IMG/VR virus record: IMGVR_UViG_2740892219_000010
Location: 15,486-79,485 of that record
Origin: a virus
Taxonomy: Duplodnaviria > Heunggongvirae > Uroviricota > Caudoviricetes
Direction: 5' to 3' (one strand)
DNA length: 64,000 nt
Shown: positions 6,647 to 41,931 of the stretch, piece by piece
How positions within the stretch are numbered: position 1 is the stretch's first letter
Layout of the letters: the number at the start of each line of letters is the position of its first letter
The notes under the pieces: generated by a model
The model's input: only the letters and a program-made list of their open reading frames with translations
The model's database searches: none
What the model was told of the DNA's origin: nothing
Made by a program: the position numbers and the translations under genes

Positions 6647-7318
6647 TTATACGCAAACGTCGTCTAAATGGTTCTGATAATGATGCAAAGTTGCAAGAAG
6701 TGCCATTTCATCAAGTGCTCTCACCGCCTCTTTCATTCCTGCCCAGTGCGGGGAGTATGTTTCGCACCAGGTGGAACGAGAAACAGAAAGCATTACAGCT
6801 AGCGCAGATCCGGCCATCTCCTTAAAATCCTCGCGTTTATTTGCTGCTGCAACCGCCTGCACGGACAACCACACCAACGAAAGCAGGCGCTTAACTACTT
6901 TTCTCTGAGTTGACGCGGGGATGTGTCCTTTATAGCGACTCCAGACAGCCTCACAAATAGCTGTTTGGTGTTTGAACGCCAGGTTACCACCGTAGCAATA
7001 ACGCAACCACGCTTGCTGACTTGCATCCAGCGAGTTCACAGAACGCCGCCAGGATGAATCAGCAAATTCAAAATCATTCATCGGCGGCGCGGGGCGACGT
7101 CTGCTGAAACTTTCCAGAGCGTAAACTGGCGTAACCAGAGCATCAACGGTCCGGTCCTCCAGTTGCACACGGTGAATATGTTTGCGTGGGTATGCGTTTT
7201 TGTCTGCCGGTGGGTGCTCACACAATGCTTCCAGCTGCCCCTTAGAACCACCAGACAAATCCCGCAATGCAGCGCGCAGTTTTATGCGGGTATATTCCAA
7301 TAAATACTCGTTACTCAT
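6647..7318 (-). CDS. Putative late-gene antiterminator (Q position)
   Basis: 223 aa ORF between nin-type genes and the lysis cassette; assigned by synteny only. Confidence 0.4.
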   Translation of the reverse strand: MSNEYLLEYTRIKLRAALRDLSGGSKGQLEALCEHPPADKNAYPRKHIHRVQLEDRTVDALVTPVYALESFSRRRPAPPMNDFEFADSSWRRSVNSLDASQQAWLRYCYGGNLAFKHQTAICEAVWSRYKGHIPASTQRKVVKRLLSLVWLSVQAVAAANKREDFKEMAGSALAVMLSVSRSTWCETYSPHWAGMKEAVRALDEMALLATLHHYQNHLDDVCV

Positions 7319-7611
7319 CAGATAAACTCCTCATCGCGCCAGATAGCCAGTGTTCTGAAAACTCCCTCAGCGTGCATCAACAACAATGAGTCGTACTCGT
7401 AATCCGTTTTTGTACGTCCGTCGATGGCATCGTGACACGCACTGCAGGCGATAGCGCCCTGCATATCGTGAGGTTTGATGGCTGTGCCGCACGTTCCGGC
7501 GAGACGATAATGAGCCAGTACGCTGGTTTCAGGATTGTGATTGCACACACCGGGGATACGCACAGTACAAGCGCGACTGCGTGCAGCTTTTCTCAGGTCG
7601 ATTTTTTTCAT
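7318..7611 (-). CDS. YbcO-like protein (DUF1364), putative nuclease
   Basis: 97 aa; RKAARSRACTVRIPGVCNHNPETSVLAHYR and CSACHD closely match recalled E. coli DLP12 YbcO. Confidence 0.7.
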   Translation of the reverse strand: MKKIDLRKAARSRACTVRIPGVCNHNPETSVLAHYRLAGTCGTAIKPHDMQGAIACSACHDAIDGRTKTDYEYDSLLLMHAEGVFRTLAIWRDEEFI

Positions 7612-8204
7612 GATGTGTAATCCAGCAGCTGCGCGGCGGCATTTTCAGCGGCCTCCTGAGAGGCAAATGTGCGGAACAAAATATAATTCCACAGCACATC
7701 TAAAACGGCTGAATACAGTTGACCGAACTCAAGATCGTCCATCGCTGCAAACGAGATTGAACGAGGTACGCGCATCAAACTGCCGTCTGGCATCTGATGA
7801 ACGTCATAAAACCCAGCTTCCATAATCGCCCATGCGCGAAACGCCTCGAACGACTTCACCGCACTGATACTCCCCGCGCGCTTTTCCGACTCATCGAGAA
7901 GATACTGATCAGCCAGCTCTGCCATGACATCACCGTGTCCACCGTAATACGCCAGTAACTTAACGTAGCCGTGAACCAGTTCGCGCTCCGCAGGAGAAAT
8001 AGCCCCTCCGGACGGATGCCAGTAATCAAAGCCCAGGTTGAGAAGTGAGAAAAATTTACGATGAAACGCGGGATTACGCGCCTGTTTGAAATCTGCATAC
8101 ACAACAGCACCTGGTTTGACTCGTTCAGTCAACCAGCGTTGCGTGTCTGGTGTCGCGGGTATTAGCGAACCGCCGGATACCCTGATAAATGAATGCTGCG
8201 CCAT
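7608..8204 (-). CDS. Conserved lambdoid nin-region protein (DUF1367-like)
   Basis: 198 aa ORF overlapping the YbcO-like gene start; family name from memory. Confidence 0.45.
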   Translation of the reverse strand: MAQHSFIRVSGGSLIPATPDTQRWLTERVKPGAVVYADFKQARNPAFHRKFFSLLNLGFDYWHPSGGAISPAERELVHGYVKLLAYYGGHGDVMAELADQYLLDESEKRAGSISAVKSFEAFRAWAIMEAGFYDVHQMPDGSLMRVPRSISFAAMDDLEFGQLYSAVLDVLWNYILFRTFASQEAAENAAAQLLDYTS

Positions 8205-8613: not shown

Positions 8614-9291
8614 TTATTTATCACTCCTGTAAATTGGAATTAACCATTTTCTAATCGTCGACGCTGCAGGTGGGTCAGAGTATTTCGCCACAAAAATACC
8701 GGATATGTATTGCACGCCACGCGATAATGGCGCTGTCGGGTTTTCAGTAAAAAAACGATCAGCCAGTTCAATGGCTTCGCTTTTTAATCTGTGCTGTGGT
8801 CGTCCTCCGCCCTTTGTTCCCAAGTATCGCGCCAGTTGTTTGAAACGGTAGGCGATGATTAACGGTCGCATCATCATATTGAAAAAATCGCGGGCATCGT
8901 TGTCAGCGCCTTGCGCTATCAACAGTGCAAAAAACAGATACGGGATTATGTACACTTCAGGAGATATACGAACCCGTTCACAAGTTGGTGGAGCCAACTC
9001 AATAAGTAAGTCAGCCAGCGGATTCCCCTTTTCTCCACGTTTGTAATAGCGATACAGCGGCCCGATATCAAGTTCACTCACGTCGATTTCAGGATGCCCG
9101 GCAACGACTGTACGTATCTCTTCTGCCAGAGCGTCAAATATTGCCCCGGTCCGTTCAAGATAGAGCCTCCGGGTCGAACCGCGATCATCCAACGCCCGTA
9201 ACATATCTAACCGGCTAACGAAAGTTTCAGGCCAGTCCTCATAGAAGGTTTTCATAATTACCTCGAATAATAAAAACTGCACTATTTGCAC
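8614..9291 (-). CDS. Hypothetical protein
   Basis: 225 aa ORF (possible internal start at MKTFYEDW, 9255); no recognised motif. Confidence 0.45.
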   Translation of the reverse strand: MQIVQFLLFEVIMKTFYEDWPETFVSRLDMLRALDDRGSTRRLYLERTGAIFDALAEEIRTVVAGHPEIDVSELDIGPLYRYYKRGEKGNPLADLLIELAPPTCERVRISPEVYIIPYLFFALLIAQGADNDARDFFNMMMRPLIIAYRFKQLARYLGTKGGGRPQHRLKSEAIELADRFFTENPTAPLSRGVQYISGIFVAKYSDPPAASTIRKWLIPIYRSDK

Positions 9292-9498: not shown

Positions 9499-9732
9499 AT
9501 GGGTACGTTAGGCAACCAGCCGTGCAGAAGTCGTTATGAGTTCGATGATTTTAATTTAGCCAATCGAGCTGCGGCTCTTACTAAGTTAGCAAAAGAAACT
9601 GGTGTATCGGTGGATACCTTAATCAAACTTGAAATTGCTATGCAACTGAATCGGCTCAACTCCATCCTTATCGAAAACGGTGACAAGATGGACGAGAATC
9701 TGGCAGGTATTGGCGAGATACTGCAGAAGTGA
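9499..9732 (+). CDS. Hypothetical small protein, first gene of a plus-strand cargo block
   Basis: 77 aa with RBS gagga; could be the regulatory partner of the downstream ImmA/IrrE-like peptidase. Confidence 0.4.
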   Translation: MGTLGNQPCRSRYEFDDFNLANRAAALTKLAKETGVSVDTLIKLEIAMQLNRLNSILIENGDKMDENLAGIGEILQK

Positions 9733-10130
9733 GAGTAGCCCCTCTTCTGAGGGGTTGCACATTTAAAATATTAAGGGCGGTCTTCTTCACGTACACAGTC
9801 ACCTGGTCGAATCGTTCACGCATACTGAGTACAAAAAATCTCAACGATAAGATCAGGTTAGACCTGTATTTTTCAGAAACATATGGACGCCTAAAAAAAC
9901 ACTAAACTCATGATTATCATGTATGTTTTTACTGGAAACATTGAACCATCCACAATACAGCGTAAAAAGCAAGCAATTCACAAGATTTTAAAGTGATTTA
10001 TCTGGAAGACTTTACTACTAACAGTTAATATCGTACCAGAAGTGCAGAATTTGCACTTTTACAGGAATGTGGTACGGAACATGCTGTCTATATTTCAACC
10101 AATAATCGTAATGCAGTAACTGGAGGAGCT

Positions 10131-10619
10131 ATGGCTACCAACCCAAGAGAGCACGCCCGGCGAGTGCTGGACACGTTCTGGTGCGGGCGTGGTTTCCCTG
10201 TTGATCCAGCGAAAATTGCTCACGACATGGGATTAGATGTTTTTATTACCGATCTTCCTGGGAAAGTTTCTGGCGCACTGATTAAACAAAAAGATCAAGA
10301 TCCAGCGATCTTTCTAAACAGTGATGACAACAAAGTTCGTCAACGTTTTTCATGTGGGCATGAGTTGGGGCATTACATCGCCCGGCAAGCATCGCATAGC
10401 GATGAATATGAGTACGTTGATTTACGTGGCGAAACCGCAAGCGCCGGAACGCATCCTGATGAAATTTTTGCGAACAAGTTCGCAGCAGAACTTCTGATGC
10501 CGGTTGATGAGGTCAGAAAACTGCACGCTGACGGTCAACCAAGTTATATAATGGCGCATTATTTTGGCGTATCTGACGATGCGATGACTTATCGTTTAAA
10601 GAACTTGAGGTTGGGGTAA
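10131..10619 (+). CDS. ImmA/IrrE-family zinc metallopeptidase (DUF955-like)
   Basis: 162 aa with HEXXH motif (CGHELGHYIA) in the context typical of ImmA/IrrE; RBS ggagga. Confidence 0.65.
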   Translation: MATNPREHARRVLDTFWCGRGFPVDPAKIAHDMGLDVFITDLPGKVSGALIKQKDQDPAIFLNSDDNKVRQRFSCGHELGHYIARQASHSDEYEYVDLRGETASAGTHPDEIFANKFAAELLMPVDEVRKLHADGQPSYIMAHYFGVSDDAMTYRLKNLRLG

Positions 10620-10628
10620 CGCTTTAAA

Positions 10629-11234
10629 ATGCCATCGGATGATGATTTTAACAGCCGTTTCAAACAGGAAGTTGCACGCCGACTGAAGGATTCCCTCAAC
10701 CTACACCGCCAGTTAGCAGAAGAGGTTGAGCCGGAGGACGATGAAACTCCGGTTCAGTCTCCTGACGAAGCTTCACCTCAGCCAAAGGTTTCGCACGCCC
10801 CCAAAAAAACGGCTGTCCGTATTCGCGGAATAGCCAGAAAACGAGCTGCCGAAGCTCGCAAAATGGCTGTAGCTGCATCTAGCAAAAGAATTCCAACTGT
10901 TACACCCTCTCAACAAGTCACCCGTACTGAGAGTAAAATCTTGACCGAGTTCACATCTGTGAAACAGGTGAATTCACTTGATACCGAGCATGAGCGCAAA
11001 CAACTCAACAACAAAGATTTTGAAGCAGAAATCGCTCTAAAAAAACGATACGGGAAATGGTTCCTGATTATCCTTGCTTTCCAACTTCTGATAATGAATG
11101 GTGTATTTATTGCCGACGGCGCAGGTAAGCTGGAATTTGAGGATTTAACACTACAGTTGTACATGGGCGGTACTTTGACAGAGGTATTCGGCCTCGTGCT
11201 GGTCGTGACAAAATACCTTTTTAAACGCAAGTAA
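10629..11234 (+). CDS. Hypothetical membrane protein, charged N-terminus and two C-terminal TM helices
   Basis: 201 aa, 10 nt downstream of the ImmA-like gene; its last ~22 codons are duplicated at 15760-15827. Confidence 0.5.
   Translation: MPSDDDFNSRFKQEVARRLKDSLNLHRQLAEEVEPEDDETPVQSPDEASPQPKVSHAPKKTAVRIRGIARKRAAEARKMAVAASSKRIPTVTPSQQVTRTESKILTEFTSVKQVNSLDTEHERKQLNNKDFEAEIALKKRYGKWFLIILAFQLLIMNGVFIADGAGKLEFEDLTLQLYMGGTLTEVFGLVLVVTKYLFKRK
11163..11230 (+). repeat. Direct repeat DR1 (68 bp), left boundary of cassette island
   Basis: atgggcggtactttgacagaggtattcgg...aaacgcaa recurs at 15760-15827 with 3-4 mismatches. Confidence 0.85.
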
Positions 11235-11483
11235 CTCTCTCAGTCCAACAGTCTTTCGAAGGCCTTGATCAAAGGGCCTTGATAAATTAGCAGTGCGTTG
11301 AAAACAGATAGTTATTCCCATCAGTTCCAACGTAATACACATCAAAAAAATCACCATTCTTTTGCTCTAACGTCAACACCTACTCTTAAAAAAATAATTC
11401 TCCAAGAATGAGAAAGTTATTGTGTGTATTAGATAAGATATGAGCTGACACATCTATGGCGTGGAGCCAAATTTAATATGACA

Positions 11484-11507
11484 GTCCGCTCTGTGCCAGG
11501 AGCGGAC
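11484..11507 (+). repeat. Hairpin repeat copy A (partial: 3-prime half only)
   Basis: gtccgctctgtgccaggagcggac; GTCCGCT/AGCGGAC inverted repeat around loop TGTGCCAGG, shared with copies B-D. Confidence 0.8.
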
Positions 11508-11871
11508 GTTGTAAAGTTTATTTGGAGAATAATGGTTAGAAGAACTATGTAGATCATAGCCCTCTAAAGTCAGTAGTTTTACACCATATAAATGGTCATT
11601 TAGAGATAGTACACCACCTACAAAAAACGAGATAAAGCGTGCAAGCGGCATGAAGATACATAAAATACTCCATTCTGCACTTGATGTTAGGATGAATACT
11701 GACACTCGCTTTGTAAAGATAAAGATGATCTTGAGGATGATTAGTTTATTAATTATCTCCAATGTTTGTTATTTTGTGATGATAAAGATTCTCTGGATTA
11801 ATAGGATGGTAATTCAATTAAAAGAGACCTTATAGAAGGCCTCTTTTAAGTTATGAGAGCTGATTTTATAT

Positions 11872-12249
11872 TCAATAGAGTATTCTCATCGAAGAAATAA
11901 CCTCATAAAATGTAAAGACAGCCAGCAAAAAAATACAGATAAAGATAAGGGAAATAGCACACTTAACTAAGGACTGAATCCCCCGAGGTGTTCCCCATGG
12001 TTTAGACATTTGGGTTATAACCCAAATAAATAAGGCCATAAAACAGCAAACACCAGCCAATCCGAGCAGAGATATTATGACAACTCCAAATAGATTTCCA
12101 ACATCTAGTTTATCTGTTTTTGCAACTAGGGTTAACAAACCAGCAATAATAGTTGCTATCGATATTCCCGCAATGGTTGTGAGATCAGCGATAACAGCCA
12201 GTTTTTCTTTAGTATTTCCTTGAGTAAAAACCTCTAAAATTGATTTCAT
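11872..12249 (-). CDS. Small multi-pass membrane protein
   Basis: 125 aa, about four hydrophobic helices, RBS aggtgg; flanked by hairpin repeats A and B. Confidence 0.5.
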   Translation of the reverse strand: MKSILEVFTQGNTKEKLAVIADLTTIAGISIATIIAGLLTLVAKTDKLDVGNLFGVVIISLLGLAGVCCFMALFIWVITQMSKPWGTPRGIQSLVKCAISLIFICIFLLAVFTFYEVISSMRILY

Positions 12250-12364
12250 GGAAAATAACCACCTACTATCGATTATATTCAGGAACTTTTTATCATAACG
12301 ATATCAGATAGATAAGGATATTGTAATATTTTGGATGATTTAAACTTACTTTTGTAACTCTAAT

Positions 12365-12430
12365 GTCCACTTTTCGCTCACAGCGGACCTTTAGCTCAGT
12401 TACCTCGTCCGCTTTGTGCCAGGAGCGGCC
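12365..12430 (+). repeat. Hairpin repeat copy B (~65 bp)
   Basis: gtccac..cgctcacagcggacc..tagctcag..gtccgctttgtgccaggagcggcc; same family as C and D. Confidence 0.8.
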
Positions 12431-12691
12431 GCTAACCTGATTGACGGGAAATCATATTAAGTCGGCATAAAAAATTAGAATATCTTTAGTGACTATTACT
12501 AATGTGTGTGTATAACTTATGCCTAATTTATCGCTCCGGCTGAGGGAATCTTGCCTCCGCTGTCACTTTTAGGTATGTTAACAACTATTTTTACAGTGGT
12601 TCCGAGTTATGCTATCTAACAGATTACTTGAACCGAGTCCGTTTATCAGTATGGCGTTTTATATGCTCAGAGTCCATCCAAGGAGTGACTT

Positions 12692-13168
12692 TTGAAATTT
12701 GAACAAATCTATAAAAATATTACTGGCCTTAGCTGTCCCATATTCGGGATTCAGTGGAATGCTCCAATAATAGAAACTGACGAAGCGAAGAAGTTCGTCA
12801 TTTTTCTTGAGGACAAGCGCGTTCTTTTCAATCCTGTCGACATGGAGGGTGCTAGTCATTGCACTTCGAGTGTTATCAACATTAGATCTGAATTGACTAA
12901 AGTCCTACAAGGTTTGCCGAGCGATTCACATTTAGCAAAACAATTAAGGAAAATGAGAAAAGCATGCCAAGAATTCTGTGACAGCGTTGGCTCCCCTCAC
13001 TTTATCCAACTTGATCATCCTGTTCAAATATCCATACTTGAGCGAGCCCTTTTTAAACTGCGACAAAAGTGTGGTAACTCTCTGGCAGAAATAGCGGTTA
13101 CCTATGGTCTTGATGTTGATGACGGATTGGCCAGTATTATCCCTTTTAATAATCCCAGTAACATATAG
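12692..13168 (+). CDS. Hypothetical protein
   Basis: 158 aa; probable TTG start 6 nt after RBS aaggag; flanked by repeats B and C. Confidence 0.45.
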   Translation: MKFEQIYKNITGLSCPIFGIQWNAPIIETDEAKKFVIFLEDKRVLFNPVDMEGASHCTSSVINIRSELTKVLQGLPSDSHLAKQLRKMRKACQEFCDSVGSPHFIQLDHPVQISILERALFKLRQKCGNSLAEIAVTYGLDVDDGLASIIPFNNPSNI

Positions 13169-13264
13169 CAATGACTATGAATTTGCTTGCTGGATTAATT
13201 ATCATGCAACCGACAGTTTTGGGTCGGAAGCGGTTAGCAAATTAGTCATTAGTGAGTCGTTATG

Positions 13265-13330
13265 TCCGTTCATCGCTCACAGCGGACCTTCAGCTCAGGT
13301 AACTTGTCCGCTTCGTGCCAAAAGCGGACA
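13265..13330 (+). repeat. Hairpin repeat copy C (~65 bp)
   Basis: gtccgttcatcgctcacagcggaccttcagctcagg..gtccgcttcgtgccaaaagcggaca. Confidence 0.8.
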
Positions 13331-13448
13331 TGTCAAAGCGCAGAGTGAATGGCTAAGTCTAGCTCATTAAAAATGTTCACTTCATGAAAATGGCTGCAGC
13401 AAGAATCTATCTCACTGCGGCCTCTTTACAATAACGAAATTTTGCAAG

Positions 13449-14204
13449 CTATTCCTTGGCCTCTTTATTCTTCTCGCCATCGCCAATATAAATAAGATAG
13501 TCGTTTAAGGATATCCTTCCGGAGGGACCGGTCCATGTTATCAATCCGTTTTCACGAAGATTAAATAATGCTTCCATGAACTCATTATCGTTAAAAGAAT
13601 GATCTTCTGAGAACAGAATGTTCATTTTTCTCAATAGTTCTTCCACTTTAATCTTTTCATATCGCCTTATCAGACTTAGTGCTCTACGACGCATTAAGAC
13701 TGTAGGTACTGCTTGTGAACGAATGGTTTTTTGTATTCCACTATCAAGAACTTTCTTAATCTTACTCTCTAATTCTTTGATTTTAGTTTCATTATCTCCA
13801 TTGGACTTAAGCTTTTCATCAACGATACAAATAATCTCCTGACTAATGCGGTTCTTGAGTTTGTTTATTTTTTCTTCATTGTTGAGGATCTCATCAGAGC
13901 TTCCTGCATGGGGTTTTTTCCATATGTGCTGACGCATATCCGTTACCGTATCTCTCATCATAGAGAATGTATCTGAATATAACTTGTCAAATATTTTTTC
14001 CAGTCGTTCGACACTTGCCTGGATGTCTTTTGCTGCTTTAGTTGTCTCTTTAGAAGCCTCATTCGACATTTTATAAAAAACAAAAGAAAGCCAAATAGCC
14101 CCAATGGCGAGTACTAATGAGGCTATTGTGGCAATAAAACCTATTATTGTTATTGCTGTATCTAATGTACCTGCTGCATCTGTGACTACTGTTTCTGCTG
14201 CCAT
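13449..14204 (-). CDS. Hypothetical membrane-anchored coiled-coil protein
   Basis: 251 aa, N-terminal TM helix then Lys/Glu-rich coiled-coil-like sequence; RBS gagga; flanked by repeats C and D. Confidence 0.5.
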   Translation of the reverse strand: MAAETVVTDAAGTLDTAITIIGFIATIASLVLAIGAIWLSFVFYKMSNEASKETTKAAKDIQASVERLEKIFDKLYSDTFSMMRDTVTDMRQHIWKKPHAGSSDEILNNEEKINKLKNRISQEIICIVDEKLKSNGDNETKIKELESKIKKVLDSGIQKTIRSQAVPTVLMRRRALSLIRRYEKIKVEELLRKMNILFSEDHSFNDNEFMEALFNLRENGLITWTGPSGRISLNDYLIYIGDGEKNKEAKE

Positions 14205-14488
14205 ATATCCTCAATATTTAACCATACAGGGTAGCGTGTTTTAACCGCGGGGAAGTCGGGGTGGTGACACCCTGGCCTTACCCCAATTCCAGAGTATTTG
14301 TTTATCATACCATTGAAACTATTTAATTTTATCGAAAATTTTGTCAGAGCGTGACTGAAAAGTCTTCAGCACGTCAAGCAGATCGTCGCCGTTCAATTAG
14401 CACTGAACTTTTTCTTAGTGGGGGGCTGTGCAGTTGCGAAGTTATGCCCCAGTTCCTCACTACATTCTAATTAAGCCGGCCAACTAAA

Positions 14489-14550
14489 TGTCCGCTCCTC
14501 GCTCACAGCGGGTCTTCAGTTGTTCGTCCACTCTGTGCCAGGAGCGGACA
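14489..14550 (+). repeat. Hairpin repeat copy D (~62 bp)
   Basis: gtccgctcctcgctcacagcgggtcttcag..cgtccactctgtgccaggagcggaca. Confidence 0.8.
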
Positions 14551-14640
14551 TTGATTATTCCTCACTGTAAAAATCTTAATGCTAACTAGTGGGAACTATA
14601 AGTTGTCAATTGACATAATTGTGTATATTTTGCGATTTAA

Positions 14641-15468
<828 letters not shown>

Positions 15469-15696
15469 CCAATATATGGCAGTAATGAATATTTCGGGGA
15501 TCGTGTTTGCTGCGGTCATGGTTACCATTAGCAGAATAAAACTTGTGAAGGGACGTATCAAACTAAGGATGCTATGTGCGGTAAAGTTTCAATGCAGGGA
15601 ACAGATGCTGAAGTCAAGAAAATGGTCGATTGCCAGACGCAAATGACCCTTTCAAGAATCGCTTTCCTCAGAAACCAATAACTGAAGTTTCCTTCA

Positions 15697-15728
15697 AGCT
15701 GGCGCCAGGTGTTAACCTGGTGCCAGCT
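15697..15728. other. Near-perfect 14-bp-stem hairpin next to DR2
   Basis: agctggcgccaggtg-ttaa-cctggtgccagct; no T-tract, so not a classical terminator. Confidence 0.5.
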
Positions 15729-15759
15729 TAGTCATCAAGTGCATATTTAACTGTTTTAT

Positions 15760-15827
15760 ATGGGCGGTACTTTGACAGAGGTATTCGGTCTCGTGCTGGT
15801 CGTGGTCAAATACCTTTTTAAACGCAA
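15760..15827 (+). repeat. Direct repeat DR2 (68 bp), right boundary; orphan 3-prime gene fragment
   Basis: Copy of the 3-prime end of gene 10629-11234 (would encode ..YMGGTLTEVFGLVLVVVKYLFKRK) with no upstream ORF. Confidence 0.85.
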
Positions 15828-15855
15828 ATAGAGTATTTCCGCCCCAAACAACCTG

Positions 15856-16692
15856 TCAAAATGCTGAATTAGCAACGGATATAGCCGACTTTTTCCCCAT
15901 TACCATCAATTTATCCAGTGTCATACTTCGCAGGTTGTCGCTGTGGATCACCAGATACCCTGCCCGCTCAGCGATCTCTTTGAAAGCGTCAAAAGTCATC
16001 AGATGTTCGCCTTTGGCAACATGGCGCATCCTGGTCACTTTTCCATTTTTGATAGTGGTGATAAAAGAAAAATCCGGAATGGTTGGCTGATTTTCATCGA
16101 GTAGCAGGCAGTGGATGTATTCAATCGCCTCTAACATTTGCGTCTGTGACAGTTGTTCTATGTGAGAGACGGCGAAGCGTTGATGAATCATGGTGTAGGC
16201 ATCGGGATACATCATGCCTTTCTTACCGACCAGCATATTAACGGCATCACGTAAGGGAGTACGGTCATCGGTAGTTGTACTCCGCCTCTCTGGACGCTGG
16301 CTAAAATAACAATCTTCCAGCTTTTCGAAAACTTCCCAGGCCTGTTCTGTTTCCAGCATTTTGGCATGGCGAGCTGCGCCGCGTTCTGTCCAGAGAATGA
16401 GGGATCGGGTATGTTTAGCAACTGACTGACTATCTGTCAGTCTGTTTTTGAAGTCGCGTAATTCATTACCTTCCAGCTTAAAAAAATGCTTTCCTACGAC
16501 AAATCTGGCGATGTTGCGCTTGAAGTTTTGCTGGATACCATTTACTTCCGTGCCATACAAACTGGCAAGCAATTCAGTAGTGATGACGGGAAGTTGGTTA
16601 TGATGTAGCGGAGAAAGGGATTCCGCAGATATTTGGATTGTCATCGCAGTGGCCTCACTTAGTGTTTTTTTCATCACCACCAGCGACGCCAA
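15856..16692 (-). CDS. Phage antirepressor-like protein
   Basis: 278 aa; N-terminal region resembles antirepressor/Rha-type phage regulator domains (recalled, not searched). Confidence 0.45.
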   Translation of the reverse strand: MASLVVMKKTLSEATAMTIQISAESLSPLHHNQLPVITTELLASLYGTEVNGIQQNFKRNIARFVVGKHFFKLEGNELRDFKNRLTDSQSVAKHTRSLILWTERGAARHAKMLETEQAWEVFEKLEDCYFSQRPERRSTTTDDRTPLRDAVNMLVGKKGMMYPDAYTMIHQRFAVSHIEQLSQTQMLEAIEYIHCLLLDENQPTIPDFSFITTIKNGKVTRMRHVAKGEHLMTFDAFKEIAERAGYLVIHSDNLRSMTLDKLMVMGKKSAISVANSAF

Positions 16693-16916
16693 TCATCTGG
16701 TGGTGAACTGTGCAGGGTTGGCGTAACCGGCTAAGTGAACCCGGCGCTTCCACAGAAGCCCCCACACAGCCCACCATAATGCGAATGTGGCCGTGCCTAA
16801 CACATAAAAAAACCGCTAACGCGGCTATGCGTCACTTAGATATCCGGGACGCCAATCCCGGCAACCGATTTTGCGGCTGCGCGGAAACTATAGCCCCGGA
16901 CTTTTTCTAAGTCAAT

Positions 16917-39133: not shown

Positions 39134-40180
39134 TCAGGATGTGGGCTGGGTGTCTAACAGTGCGTAAGGGTTAAAGCGGATCACCTCTTCGCCAAGCCAG
39201 TCATTGATGTGCTTCATGGCCTCCATGACGGGCATCAGCTCGTTAATTGCGTAAACCCGCGCGGCCTTCTCCACATCACCAAACGCACTTTTTTCACCCG
39301 GCATCGCCCCCATCAGTTGCGGCGGAACGCGGTGCGCAGCCAGCACATCATCACGGGATGCCGCCTTAACATTCATGAACTCATCCTTTGCGGTGATCTG
39401 CTGGAACGGCAAAATTTGCACCCCCTCTTTGCCCCCGTTGGGCGCATGAATGAGCACGTTTTTAAACGCACCACCACCACGCGCACCCTGTAGCGTTTCT
39501 TTCAGGGAGTCCATGCTTTCGCGGTTTACCTGCGCTGCACCGATGTAGATGATGCACCCGGCGTGGGATCCATTGTCGTAATACAGTTTTCTGAACATGT
39601 CCGCCGAATGAGACAGGCTGGCCGAGAGTAATGCGCCGAGATATTCCGGCATGCCGTAGATTTCCTGGTTAATGTCAGGATTCATCAGGTGGCACACTTT
39701 GCCAGGGCGAAACTGAAACGCGTCCTTACCATCCTGCACATACCACCATGATTCAAGATCGCTTCCGCGTCGCATGTATTTCGCCAGGGCGTGCCGTAAT
39801 TTAAGCGGTTCGCCGAGCATATTGCTTCGAAGCTCAAGAAATGCGTTACCGAACACAAACCAGTCCAGCGCCAGCGCCGAGAAATCCTGCCGGGAAAGCA
39901 GCGGGTGCGGAATATAGCAACCGAGCAATACATTGCGCTTAAAGTAAAGCGCAGACTGATGCCAGGACGTTTGCCGGGCGGATCTTGCCAGACCGTACCA
40001 GTCCACCGGGGTTTCATACCACCGCCCGTTATCAGCACAGTACATATTGTCCAGCAGGTCATGCCCGGTCAGGCGATAAGGACCATCAAATGTGAATGCA
40101 CTGAGCGATGATTCTTTCCTGAGCGCATCAGCGAGATCAATGCGTGAACTCATGCGCACTTTTTTATTTTTTCTGCTCAT
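39134..40180 (-). CDS. Q: Portal protein, P2 gpQ-like
   Basis: 348 aa, P2-like size and position, divergent from O. Confidence 0.8.
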   Translation of the reverse strand: MSRKNKKVRMSSRIDLADALRKESSLSAFTFDGPYRLTGHDLLDNMYCADNGRWYETPVDWYGLARSARQTSWHQSALYFKRNVLLGCYIPHPLLSRQDFSALALDWFVFGNAFLELRSNMLGEPLKLRHALAKYMRRGSDLESWWYVQDGKDAFQFRPGKVCHLMNPDINQEIYGMPEYLGALLSASLSHSADMFRKLYYDNGSHAGCIIYIGAAQVNRESMDSLKETLQGARGGGAFKNVLIHAPNGGKEGVQILPFQQITAKDEFMNVKAASRDDVLAAHRVPPQLMGAMPGEKSAFGDVEKAARVYAINELMPVMEAMKHINDWLGEEVIRFNPYALLDTQPTS

Positions 40181-41931
40181 CAGAACTCCATAACCGTGAA
40201 ACGCTCGTTTTCTCCTTCGCCGCCAATCGGTTCGTTAATGACAGCAAGCATGGTTGCCCACGCAAGGTCGCCGTGGCTGATCCCCCTCGCGCGGTCCGTT
40301 TCGTAAGTGATAAAGCCGCCCGGTGTTTTCACCTTACGCACGGCGTTAAAGGCCGCGACCAGCTCGCGTTCGGCGCGATCGTATTCCCACCGGCCGGCAC
40401 GCATTATTTGCAGCATTTTCAGTACCAGCGACCGTTTTGATGACAGCGTGAAGGTGTACGGAATAGCTGCAGGGAAAAACCGTTTCACTATCTGATAAAC
40501 AGCCTCCCCATTCCCGCCCGTCACATCAATGCCGATGTGTTCCACGTTGTAGCGACACGTGAACTCTTCAATGACTCTGGCCTGTTCTTCAAACTCCAGC
40601 CCCTGAACGCGTCGCGTCTCCACCGTTCGAAAACGGCCACCAGGAACAGCCGGAGGAACCACCACGGACACAGCGCCGCTGTCGCCGTTGCCACTGCTGC
40701 CGTTTGCGTCATACCCAATCCATACCGGACGATTCCCCATCGGGCGGGGAGCAAAAGGTTTCCAGTCTTTCCAGTCGTCGTATCCGTCAACACCGCAGCC
40801 AATCAGGATATTCAGGTTAAATGCCGATTCCCCTTCGCGGACAAACTCACACATATAGAGATTGAGGAACTCGTCTTCGGTGTTTTCATCACGAATTTCG
40901 TCGATATCGGTGTGTTTCCAGCCGTGATTGACCACATCTTCCAGCGTGACAATTTGCCGCCACGTCCGGTCAGGGCAGATAAGCCCGTTATGCAGCGTTT
41001 TCCAGTCCACAGAAAAACGCTGGCGTTTATGCGAGGCCTTTTTCTCGTTCCAGCGGTCGCCGTTCCAGTAGGCGTATGCCTCGTGCGTTTCGGTGGATGG
41101 CGTGGAGAAGTAGGTGCGCCGCAGTCCGCTGAGGGTTGCCATAGCGCCAGCCACCTTACGCAGTTCAGCAAAGCGACTGACCCAGAAAAATTCATCAAAA
41201 TAAAAATTGCCCGTATAGGACTGTGCCGACGCAGCAGAAGTGCCGAGAAAATGCAGCTCTGCGCCGTTGGAGAGGATGATTTTATCGCCCCCTTTCAGCT
41301 CCACATCAACTTCAGCCGCGGCCTTCTGAATAATGCTTTTAAACTGGAACGCCTGACGACGCGACGCAGACAAAAAAATCTGGTTACGCTGGTAAGGTTG
41401 CGCCACATCGTCACGCAGCGCCATCAGCAGAGCTTCCTGTGCAAAATACCAGGTCGCCCCAATCTGTCGGGATTTCAGGATCATCCTGTTACGTATCCCG
41501 GCTTCCCTGCAAAGGGTCAGGGAGTCAAACCAGCCCCGCTGATGCCACTCCAGCCTGCTGATGATTTTTTCCCGCAGTGCGGCAATCTGTTCCGGCGTGA
41601 AATGATTTTTGAGTTTTTTCGCCCGGCCTTTCTTTCCTGCGGCCATCACATCCGGCTGGCCATCATGCAGCTTTTTAAGCTGCCGGGTCAGCAGGTCTAT
41701 TTCCTTAAAGTCACCGCCTGTTTTATTCTGTTTTTCAGTAAGCTGGATGAGGCGCGCATCGATGGACTGCGTGACACGCTGCACGGGTGGCGTTTCATCC
41801 CACTGGTCACGTTTTTTCCACGCATAAATCGTGTTCGGGTTTATTCCCATCAGACGTGATATTTCTGCGGGCGGATAACCCTGCCAGTAAAGTTGCCGCG
41901 CACGCTGGCGCACAAAAGCGTCCTGAATCAT
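40180..41931 (-). CDS. P: Terminase large (ATPase) subunit, P2 gpP-like
   Basis: 583 aa, upstream of and coupled to the portal gene. Confidence 0.8.
   Translation of the reverse strand: MIQDAFVRQRARQLYWQGYPPAEISRLMGINPNTIYAWKKRDQWDETPPVQRVTQSIDARLIQLTEKQNKTGGDFKEIDLLTRQLKKLHDGQPDVMAAGKKGRAKKLKNHFTPEQIAALREKIISRLEWHQRGWFDSLTLCREAGIRNRMILKSRQIGATWYFAQEALLMALRDDVAQPYQRNQIFLSASRRQAFQFKSIIQKAAAEVDVELKGGDKIILSNGAELHFLGTSAASAQSYTGNFYFDEFFWVSRFAELRKVAGAMATLSGLRRTYFSTPSTETHEAYAYWNGDRWNEKKASHKRQRFSVDWKTLHNGLICPDRTWRQIVTLEDVVNHGWKHTDIDEIRDENTEDEFLNLYMCEFVREGESAFNLNILIGCGVDGYDDWKDWKPFAPRPMGNRPVWIGYDANGSSGNGDSGAVSVVVPPAVPGGRFRTVETRRVQGLEFEEQARVIEEFTCRYNVEHIGIDVTGGNGEAVYQIVKRFFPAAIPYTFTLSSKRSLVLKMLQIMRAGRWEYDRAERELVAAFNAVRKVKTPGGFITYETDRARGISHGDLAWATMLAVINEPIGGEGENERFTVMEF

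Follow-up and report, generated by a model that had tools for sequence, protein, structure and literature searches.

The DNA analysed here, a stretch of 64,000 nucleotides (nt) from a virus of the Caudoviricetes (IMG/VR record IMGVR_UViG_2740892219_000010, positions 15,486 to 79,485; hereafter the window), carries in a lambdoid prophage of E. coli two adjoining genes. They encode a 162-amino acid (aa) ImmA/IrrE-type zinc metallopeptidase and a 201-aa protein with two C-terminal transmembrane (TM) helices, termed here the 2TM protein. The two were found to constitute a near-obligate, co-inherited two-gene mobile module. Peptidases of this type (family M78, represented by ImmA, IrrE and CapP) are understood as switches which cleave XRE repressors. 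The first-pass annotation of the window had described a plus-strand block of a 77-aa protein, an HEXXH peptidase and a 201-aa protein with two C-terminal TM helices and the repeat DR1 at its 3' end, and the analysis of open reading frames (ORFs), profiles, hydropathy and repeats bore out this anatomy. Its proposal that the peptidase is tied to a membrane protein and not to a repressor agrees with the near-obligate pairing, which was observed in at least eight phyla. As the leading hypothesis, the membrane protein may be an effector gated by the peptidase, with a toxin-antitoxin (TA) arrangement in which the peptidase is the antitoxin nearly as likely.

Conservation of the peptidase and membrane protein pair

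To survey the pair, one genome of each species was scanned by pattern and tblastn, which gave 223 peptidase relatives; the best 79 loci were taken, and 78 of them were evaluable, i.e. not cut by a contig end. A family hidden Markov model detected a 2TM family member directly downstream of the peptidase in 77 of these 78 loci, and the single locus possessing the peptidase without the partner was L083. The downstream ORF in the surveyed loci encodes 105-165 aa with two C-terminal TM helices, and it usually starts -3 to +16 nt from the peptidase stop codon. Seen from the other gene, all the full-length 2TM genes from IMG/VR (10/10) are preceded by the peptidase. The loci belong to Gammaproteobacteria, Betaproteobacteria, Nitrospirota, Planctomycetota, Bacillota, Campylobacterota, Desulfobacterota, Balneola, Dormibacterota and many Actinomycetota, including Solirubrobacterales, Nocardioides and Mycobacterium. 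In enteric hosts (Klebsiella, Leclercia, Serratia, Salmonella, Enterobacter and other E. coli lineages), the gene for a homologue of the 201-aa protein is in every case preceded by that of a 162-aa M78 peptidase, and 4-12 nt lie between the two. Their settings vary and include the tRNA/integrase end of a prophage, the interval between a Q-like antiterminator and the holin, the nin region, a genomic island and the vicinity of genes of Salmonella pathogenicity island 5 (SPI-5). About 430-450 of 5426 complete E. coli genomes (~8%), mainly of sequence type 131 (ST131), possess the pair in nearly intact form, in a lambdoid prophage with the replication module on one side of it and nin/Q on the other.

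The pairwise identities of the peptidase and the 2TM protein co-vary (r=0.77, Mantel p=0.001), and the 2TM protein evolves faster, with a mean identity of 31% vs 49% for the peptidase. Some genomes or metagenome-assembled genomes (MAGs) possess two copies (L072 and L088 on OY969707.1; L035 and L090 in one MAG). The pair agrees with the generic description of a type II-like TA module, i.e. two small linked genes which are co-inherited and mobile across varied contexts. Two truncated variants, P0125 and P0002, give no indication of polarity as natural knock-outs, since the genes around them are fragmented in the same assemblies. As far as found, the pair is undescribed in the literature; searches by accession, COG2856, M78 and membrane-related terms gave no relevant publication on it. 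The peptidase-type TA of the CRISPR interference (CRISPRi) study of Rousset et al. is a different, Rosmer-like pair, and that study targeted core genes only. In Salmonella enterica (L012, 4503-5468) the pair is situated between yccA/tRNA and a degraded integrase and is followed by pipA, a pentapeptide-repeat effector (PipB2_N match) and sopB-like genes; this gene content places it at the edge of a putative SPI-5-like island.

The 162-aa protein is a member of peptidase family M78 (ImmA/IrrE, COG2856). It matches Peptidase_M78 (PF06114) with E=7.7e-18 and 64.9 bits against a cut-off of 22, over profile positions 3-123 of 123. All 20 homologues compared, including those with as little as 44% identity, retain the motif H77-E78-x-x-H81 and the third ligand E111, which align with H96/E97/H100/E129 of CapP. 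The catalytic domain is followed by a short helix-turn-helix (HTH)-like C-terminal helical subdomain, and the chain stops at residue 162 without a GAF sensor domain. The CapP-type cysteine-switch loop is also missing, as there is no cysteine between H81 and E111. A conserved insert, EYEYVDLRG (window 10394-10420, residues 89-97), separates the HExxH helix from the third zinc ligand, and Y93, D97 and R99 of the insert region are invariant or nearly so. This is the position where some CapP proteins have the autoinhibitory cysteine-switch loop, and the insert might be a different latency element. The nearest solved structures are CapP 7t5t (8.2e-08) and IrrE 3dte. In PADLOC the best match is CapP (2.4e-25), with only profile positions 3-151 of 242 covered. 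The RmrA profiles are matched (best 5.8e-12) in their peptidase portion only, for example at positions 166-266 of 363, and the other match is the generic peptidase domain of PDC-M69B.

Upstream of the peptidase gene, the sequence GGAGGA (10122-10127) is invariant in seven enteric copies and the DNA before it is otherwise unrelated, indicating that the mobile unit begins just before the peptidase gene. The candidate promoter listed in Table 1 falls within ~170 nt which, in the upstream alignment, are common only to the Salmonella copy L012, and it was not picked up by a consensus promoter scan. A conserved RNA or leader before the peptidase gene was rejected: apart from the likeness between the window and the Salmonella copy, the sequences upstream are unrelated to one another, and an Rfam search of 9733-10130 gave no match.

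Domain search gave the peptidase its family, but nothing for the partner. The 201-aa protein has no match in Pfam, NCBIfam or PADLOC, and solved structures searched with the sequences of the 2TM family gave nothing under E=0.19; the family is thus uncatalogued, being absent from Pfam, NCBIfam, PADLOC and the PDB. Only phrog_5346, whose function is unknown, is matched. When 1.84 billion cluster representatives from public data were searched with a profile of the family, at least 685 family clusters at 50% identity were found, all of small proteins.

Hydropathy places TM1 at ~144-166 and TM2 at ~175-197 of the 201-aa protein, and the AlphaFold2 (AF2) model has helices at 128-164 and 174-199. The N-terminal part forms an amphipathic helix (aa 4-32) with the enteric motif VLxxLKxTLNQHRQ, and a related motif is found in other phyla. 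The linker which follows (aa 33-119) is acidic/Pro-rich and disordered, highly variable in length and composition, and almost missing in the 105-aa members; this hypervariable cytoplasmic linker drives the range of protein length in the family (105-240 aa). A conserved juxtamembrane helix with the motif D..LKKxY precedes TM1, which has conserved Q152 and N157. After a short acidic loop, TM2 carries the near-invariant GGTLTEVFG and YLF, and the C-terminus is basic (KRK). As basic residues flank both cytoplasmic ends, the topology is predicted to be N-in/C-in. Local confidence of the model, measured as predicted local distance difference test (pLDDT), is ~75-89 over most of the N-terminal helix and TM1 and ~60-74 in TM2. 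The TM hairpin is the most constrained region of the family and possesses intramembrane polar and charged residues (Q, N, T, E), which would fit an oligomerising pore- or channel-forming element more than a passive anchor.

Neighbouring genes and the search for a third component

Neither in the window nor in 7 enteric contexts does an HTH gene adjoin the pair, and the remark of the first-pass annotation that no XRE partner is evident held for the window as well as for the related loci. In an all-vs-all BLAST of the neighbouring ORFs, the only recurrences were among close relatives in synteny. No neighbour is conserved: as many as 129 different Pfam families are matched by the 131 ORFs which flank the pair most closely, and these represent housekeeping enzymes, transposases, resolvases and occasional phage genes. 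When the same 131 ORFs were searched with PADLOC, each listed family was matched by one member; defence-island enrichment outside enterics was discarded, as no defence family recurs among these immediate neighbours. Among 122 small ORFs from 72 loci, situated <=350 nt before the peptidase gene, the only HTH families matched in Pfam were HTH_37, HTH_3 and HTH_26, with one member each. A hidden XRE or other third partner was rejected, as none emerged from the BLAST clustering or the two Pfam scans. Since neither an HTH gene nor any other neighbour recurs, the sole conserved companion of this M78 clade is the 2TM protein, and an XRE partner is lacking.

The 77-aa gene, counted by the first-pass annotation as a part of the block, is an unrelated neighbour and not an XRE repressor. 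Its family is tiny, with a handful of relatives in E. coli only. The homologues share 53-55% identity with a protein-like substitution pattern, and this, along with the conservation of the pair across phyla, indicates that the three ORFs are not due to chance. The AF2 model of the protein is a two-helix hairpin (helices 17-34 and 38-76, pLDDT 81) and not the five-helix HTH of cro/C1, and a Foldseek search against the PDB gave no match with E<4. There was no Pfam match at E<=0.1, and the sole NCBIfam match, adenylate kinase with E=0.059, is chance-level and far below the cut-off.

In a classical immunity switch, the 77-aa protein would be a DNA-binding repressor, possibly ribbon-helix-helix-like, cleaved by the peptidase, and the membrane protein would be a mere co-transcribed moron. 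The helix-GVS-helix pattern of the 77-aa sequence is in favour of such a switch, as are the insignificant Foldseek matches (E > 4), which include Arc, CopG and VapB. However, the 77-aa gene is not present in any other context of the pair examined, and its 53%-identical homologue is found alone in another prophage (L094). In the window ~400 nt with two hairpins part it from the peptidase gene, whereas the 2TM partner is near-obligate. The 77-aa protein was rejected as a missing repressor on these grounds together with its profile and fold results. By the comparative data the classical switch appears largely refuted, and it is considered very improbable.

Possible mode of action and comparison with known systems

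A membrane effector gated by the peptidase is put forward as the leading, though tentative, explanation. The 2TM membrane protein would replace the XRE repressor as the dedicated substrate of a minimal peptidase, and would be translationally coupled to it and inserted in the inner membrane. Its cytoplasmic N-terminal helix and linker would hold the hairpin inert, and the N-in/C-in helical hairpin would be the effector, acting via the conserved polar TM residues. A stress or phage cue would activate the normally latent peptidase, which would cut the cytoplasmic tail, probably near the juxtamembrane LKKxY. The toxic hairpins thus freed may oligomerise and permeabilise or depolarise the membrane, leading to growth arrest or abortive infection, and the benefit would fall to the prophage-carrying population.

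The 2TM protein is proposed as the substrate because each M78 protease studied cleaves a regulator dedicated to it, and in the case of ImmA and CapP this regulator is the product of the adjacent gene. In ImmA/ImmR and IrrE/DdrO a latent M78 protease is activated by a signal and cleaves its dedicated regulator, which in the case of ImmA is encoded adjacently. The cut in ImmR and DdrO falls after a hydrophobic residue, between the N-terminal domain and the C-terminal oligomerisation element. CapP is also latent and signal-activated, and cleaves the adjacent-gene regulator CapH between F82 and R83, again between an N-terminal domain and a C-terminal oligomerisation element (10.1101/2022.04.27.489752). 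The near-obligate pairing, the co-variation of the identities, the lack of any other conserved neighbour, the invariant catalytic residues and the contrast of a conserved polar hairpin with a hypervariable linker also speak for the gated effector. The behaviour of the characterised relatives favours the activating polarity, as does the location in enterics, within prophages and near a defence hotspot. In enterics the pair occupies prophage accessory slots (integrase/tRNA side, Q-holin interval and nin region), and the copy in the window borders the PD-T4-3 cargo.

Several points weigh against the gated effector. No toxicity, cleavage or phage-resistance data were found in the literature for any member. 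The overall confidence of the AF2 model of the 2TM protein is low (pLDDT 64, predicted TM-score 0.29). With neither a GAF domain nor a cysteine-switch loop, the peptidase sequence gives no sign of how it stays latent. Copies outside enterics mostly have housekeeping genes and transposases directly beside them, rather than defence islands. Finally, the protease-first order with stop/start overlap is the usual order of antitoxin and then toxin, and suits the opposite polarity.

In that polarity the 2TM hairpin would be constitutively toxic and the peptidase would be an antitoxin which continuously cleaves or binds the cytoplasmic tail and so renders the toxin harmless. Loss or inhibition of the peptidase would free the toxin, by way of module loss, phage shut-off of host expression or a phage inhibitor. 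With the protease gene first and the stop/start overlapping or tight, the layout is like that of most type II TA pairs, and the dispersal of small self-contained modules among unrelated genes and transposases also supports this reading, as do the several copies per genome or MAG. The peptidase occurs once without the partner (L083), yet no full-length 2TM gene was found without the peptidase. The M78 domain has a precedent in RmrA, the antitoxin of RosmerTA, whose deletion was unobtainable (10.1101/2022.05.11.491447), and the profile matches to RmrA described above point in the same direction. However, the known M78 antitoxins have an XRE HTH and a length of ~360-400 aa, judged from profile lengths, and the present peptidase has no HTH of that kind. 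The characterised stand-alone M78 proteases are latent and signal-activated rather than constitutive, and a stable enzyme is an odd choice of labile antitoxin. A peptidase antitoxin is rated as nearly as likely as the gated effector.

A role of the 2TM protein as sensor or anchor is improbable. Here it would tether the peptidase to the inner membrane or inhibit it there, in the manner of an anti-sigma factor with its sigma factor, and membrane perturbation or phage DNA entry would free the peptidase to act in trans on a phage protein (superinfection exclusion), a host factor or a prophage repressor. Small inner-membrane proteins encoded by prophages are classic superinfection-exclusion factors (T4 Imm, P22 SieA), which counts for this role, and so does the location of the enteric pair in prophage accessory slots. 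The fast evolution of the cytoplasmic tail, seen in the lower mean identity of the 2TM protein, could mirror an arms race with phage proteins. However, conservation is highest in the TM hairpin, whose polar and charged residues within the membrane would be superfluous in a simple anchor, and no third component is conserved. A conserved target in trans is also hard to name, as most copies outside enterics are not in recognisable phages. Prophage-specific superinfection exclusion, one of the roles suggested by the first-pass annotation, is less likely because outside enterics the module is situated among housekeeping genes and transposases.

ImmA/ImmR of B. subtilis ICEBs1 and its phage homologues resemble the pair in having a short stand-alone M78 protease (ImmA has ~169 aa) without a GAF domain, beside its presumed substrate on a mobile element. 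They differ from it in the partner, which here is a 2TM protein and not an XRE repressor, and in the gene order, which is reversed here with the protease first. The present pair is also situated outside the immunity/integrase control region of the prophage. CapH/CapP, of the cyclic oligonucleotide-based antiphage signalling system (CBASS), and IrrE/DdrO of Deinococcus share with it the H-E-x-x-H...E zinc ligands and the HTH-like subdomain after the catalytic domain. CapP is composed of three domains with a C-terminal GAF (10.1101/2022.04.27.489752), whereas the pair has no GAF domain, no cysteine-switch loop and no HTH substrate. No CBASS genes are found beside it, and nin genes, an ORFan and cargo cassettes are its neighbours, so the location is not that of CapP, which lies upstream of, and divergent from, a CBASS or other defence operon under its control. 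RosmerTA (RmrT/RmrA) and the COG2856-Xre TA pairs are likewise two-gene TA-like mobile modules with an M78 domain, and RosmerTA is implicated in phage defence (10.1101/2022.05.11.491447). However, RmrA is a fusion of XRE HTH and peptidase and is encoded after the toxin, and no PADLOC model, not even RmrT, is matched by the 201-aa protein. Since the 2TM protein is without a match, the pair is not a defence system catalogued in PADLOC-DB v2. As the defining partners and domains were checked and are not present, the peptidase system is not CapP, ImmA-ImmR or RmrA.

Two further likenesses are analogies only. In the gasdermin and protease systems, as in the proposed gating, a membrane protein is inert until the neighbouring protease acts, and the class II holins/pinholins (2TM, N-in/C-in) have a similar hairpin topology and charged termini. 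Sequence search of the 2TM family gave no relation to gasdermins or holins; gasdermins are soluble and beta-rich before cleavage, and holins are not known to be under protease control. By these comparisons the module would most resemble a protease-controlled TA or abortive-infection pair, with RosmerTA and gasdermin-protease as the nearest analogies.

Prophage setting, the DR1 repeat and implications

The three plus-strand ORFs were verified at the coordinates given in Table 1, and their orientation opposes the minus-strand nin/Q operon of the lambdoid prophage, whose late-regulatory genes occupy 6.6-9.3 kb. In some ST131 strains an IS1 insertion falls downstream of both genes of the pair. The window from 28000 to 64000 resembles a second, P2-like prophage by ORF sizes and order only, with a possible portal and terminase, read from the same features, at 39134-40180 (-) and 40180-41931 (-).

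Table 1. Features of the pair, its neighbours and the cargo block, with positions in the window
Feature	Position	Strand	Remark
Q antiterminator	6647-7318	-	
YbcO	7318-7611	-	flanking phage gene
DUF1367	7608-8204	-	flanking phage gene
phrog_5215	8614-9291	-	flanking phage gene
77-aa ORFan protein, phrog_5550	9499-9732	+	neighbour, outside the module
Perfect 6-bp GC-rich hairpin, CCCCTC-ttct-GAGGGG	9739-9754	+	just past the stop codon of the 77-aa gene
Terminator-like hairpin	9854-9866		
Possible weak promoter of the pair, TGGAAG-17-TAATAT	10003-10031	+	read from the sequence
Shine-Dalgarno GGAGGAG of the peptidase gene	10122-10128	+	upstream alignment
162-aa ImmA/IrrE-type (M78) zinc metallopeptidase	10131-10619	+	Pfam PF06114
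201-aa membrane protein, two C-terminal TM helices	10629-11234	+	hydropathy, alignments, AF2
DR1 copy A	11153-11233	+	3' end of the 2TM gene (TM2 and C-terminus)
Related imperfect palindromes, ~66-70 nt, between cassettes	11484-11511, 12363-12434, 13262-13333, 14487-14553		
Membrane protein matching phrog_4155	11872-12249	-	
DUF6650	12692-13168	+	
251-aa protein with N-terminal TM helix	13449-14204	-	
PD-T4-3	14641-15468	+	PADLOC 1.7e-137
DR1 copy B	15750-15830	+	23-codon remnant (MGGTLTEVFGLVLVVVKYLFKRK) of a second 2TM gene

DR1 consists of the last 81 nt of the 2TM gene, which are repeated with 90% identity in copy B. Copy B abuts a convergent Ant/ORF6N gene (15856-16692). The 4.5 kb between the two copies (11235-15749) contain four single-gene cassettes in alternating orientation, and the block looks like a cassette array with boundary repeats in a prophage defence hotspot. 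In the ST131 strain Ecol_AZ159 (L001, 14251-19890) both DR1 copies enclose a different 6-kb cargo, consisting of a hypothetical gene, a truncated site-specific integrase, an ETEC_3214 family protein and an LprI-family protein, which makes the slot a variable hotspot. The remnant (72-81 nt) is also found next to Ant without the pair in four viral contigs from IMG/VR (L106-L109) and in E. coli E24377A (hit H79). These contexts and the other cargo of Ecol_AZ159 point to an ancestral layout in which the pair was followed by Ant. The near-invariant 3' end of the 2TM gene appears to have served as a homologous-recombination boundary for cargo exchange, with DR1 as the recombination scar.

The region directly upstream of Ant/ORF6N (16696-16893, -) matches the Rfam families C4 antisense RNA (RF01695, 73.7 bits), C4 a1/b1 targets (RF03163) and isrK (RF01394, 80.4 bits). 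By these matches it is assigned as a putative antirepressor control region of the P1 immI-like or Gifsy isrK type.

The module has a length of 1.1 kb, occurs in E. coli chiefly in the pandemic ST131, and adjoins a prophage defence hotspot; the recombination boundary at the 3' end of its 2TM gene bears on the shuffling of such hotspots. Its peptidase belongs to an M78 clade that is without the repressor and is tied instead to a family of membrane hairpins not catalogued so far. Speculatively, an ImmA-type peptidase with a TM hairpin of ~60 residues may represent a minimal protease-gated membrane pore of gasdermin-like logic, serving bacterial cell suicide or defence, spread over at least eight phyla and recruited by enterobacterial prophages, or, equally novel, the first TA class with a stand-alone protease antitoxin against a membrane toxin. 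If the protease gates or neutralises a membrane toxin, this would be a new output for M78 peptidases and a new minimal architecture of abortive infection or TA, and the repressor-cleaving paradigm of the family would extend to the direct control of a membrane effector with no transcription factor.

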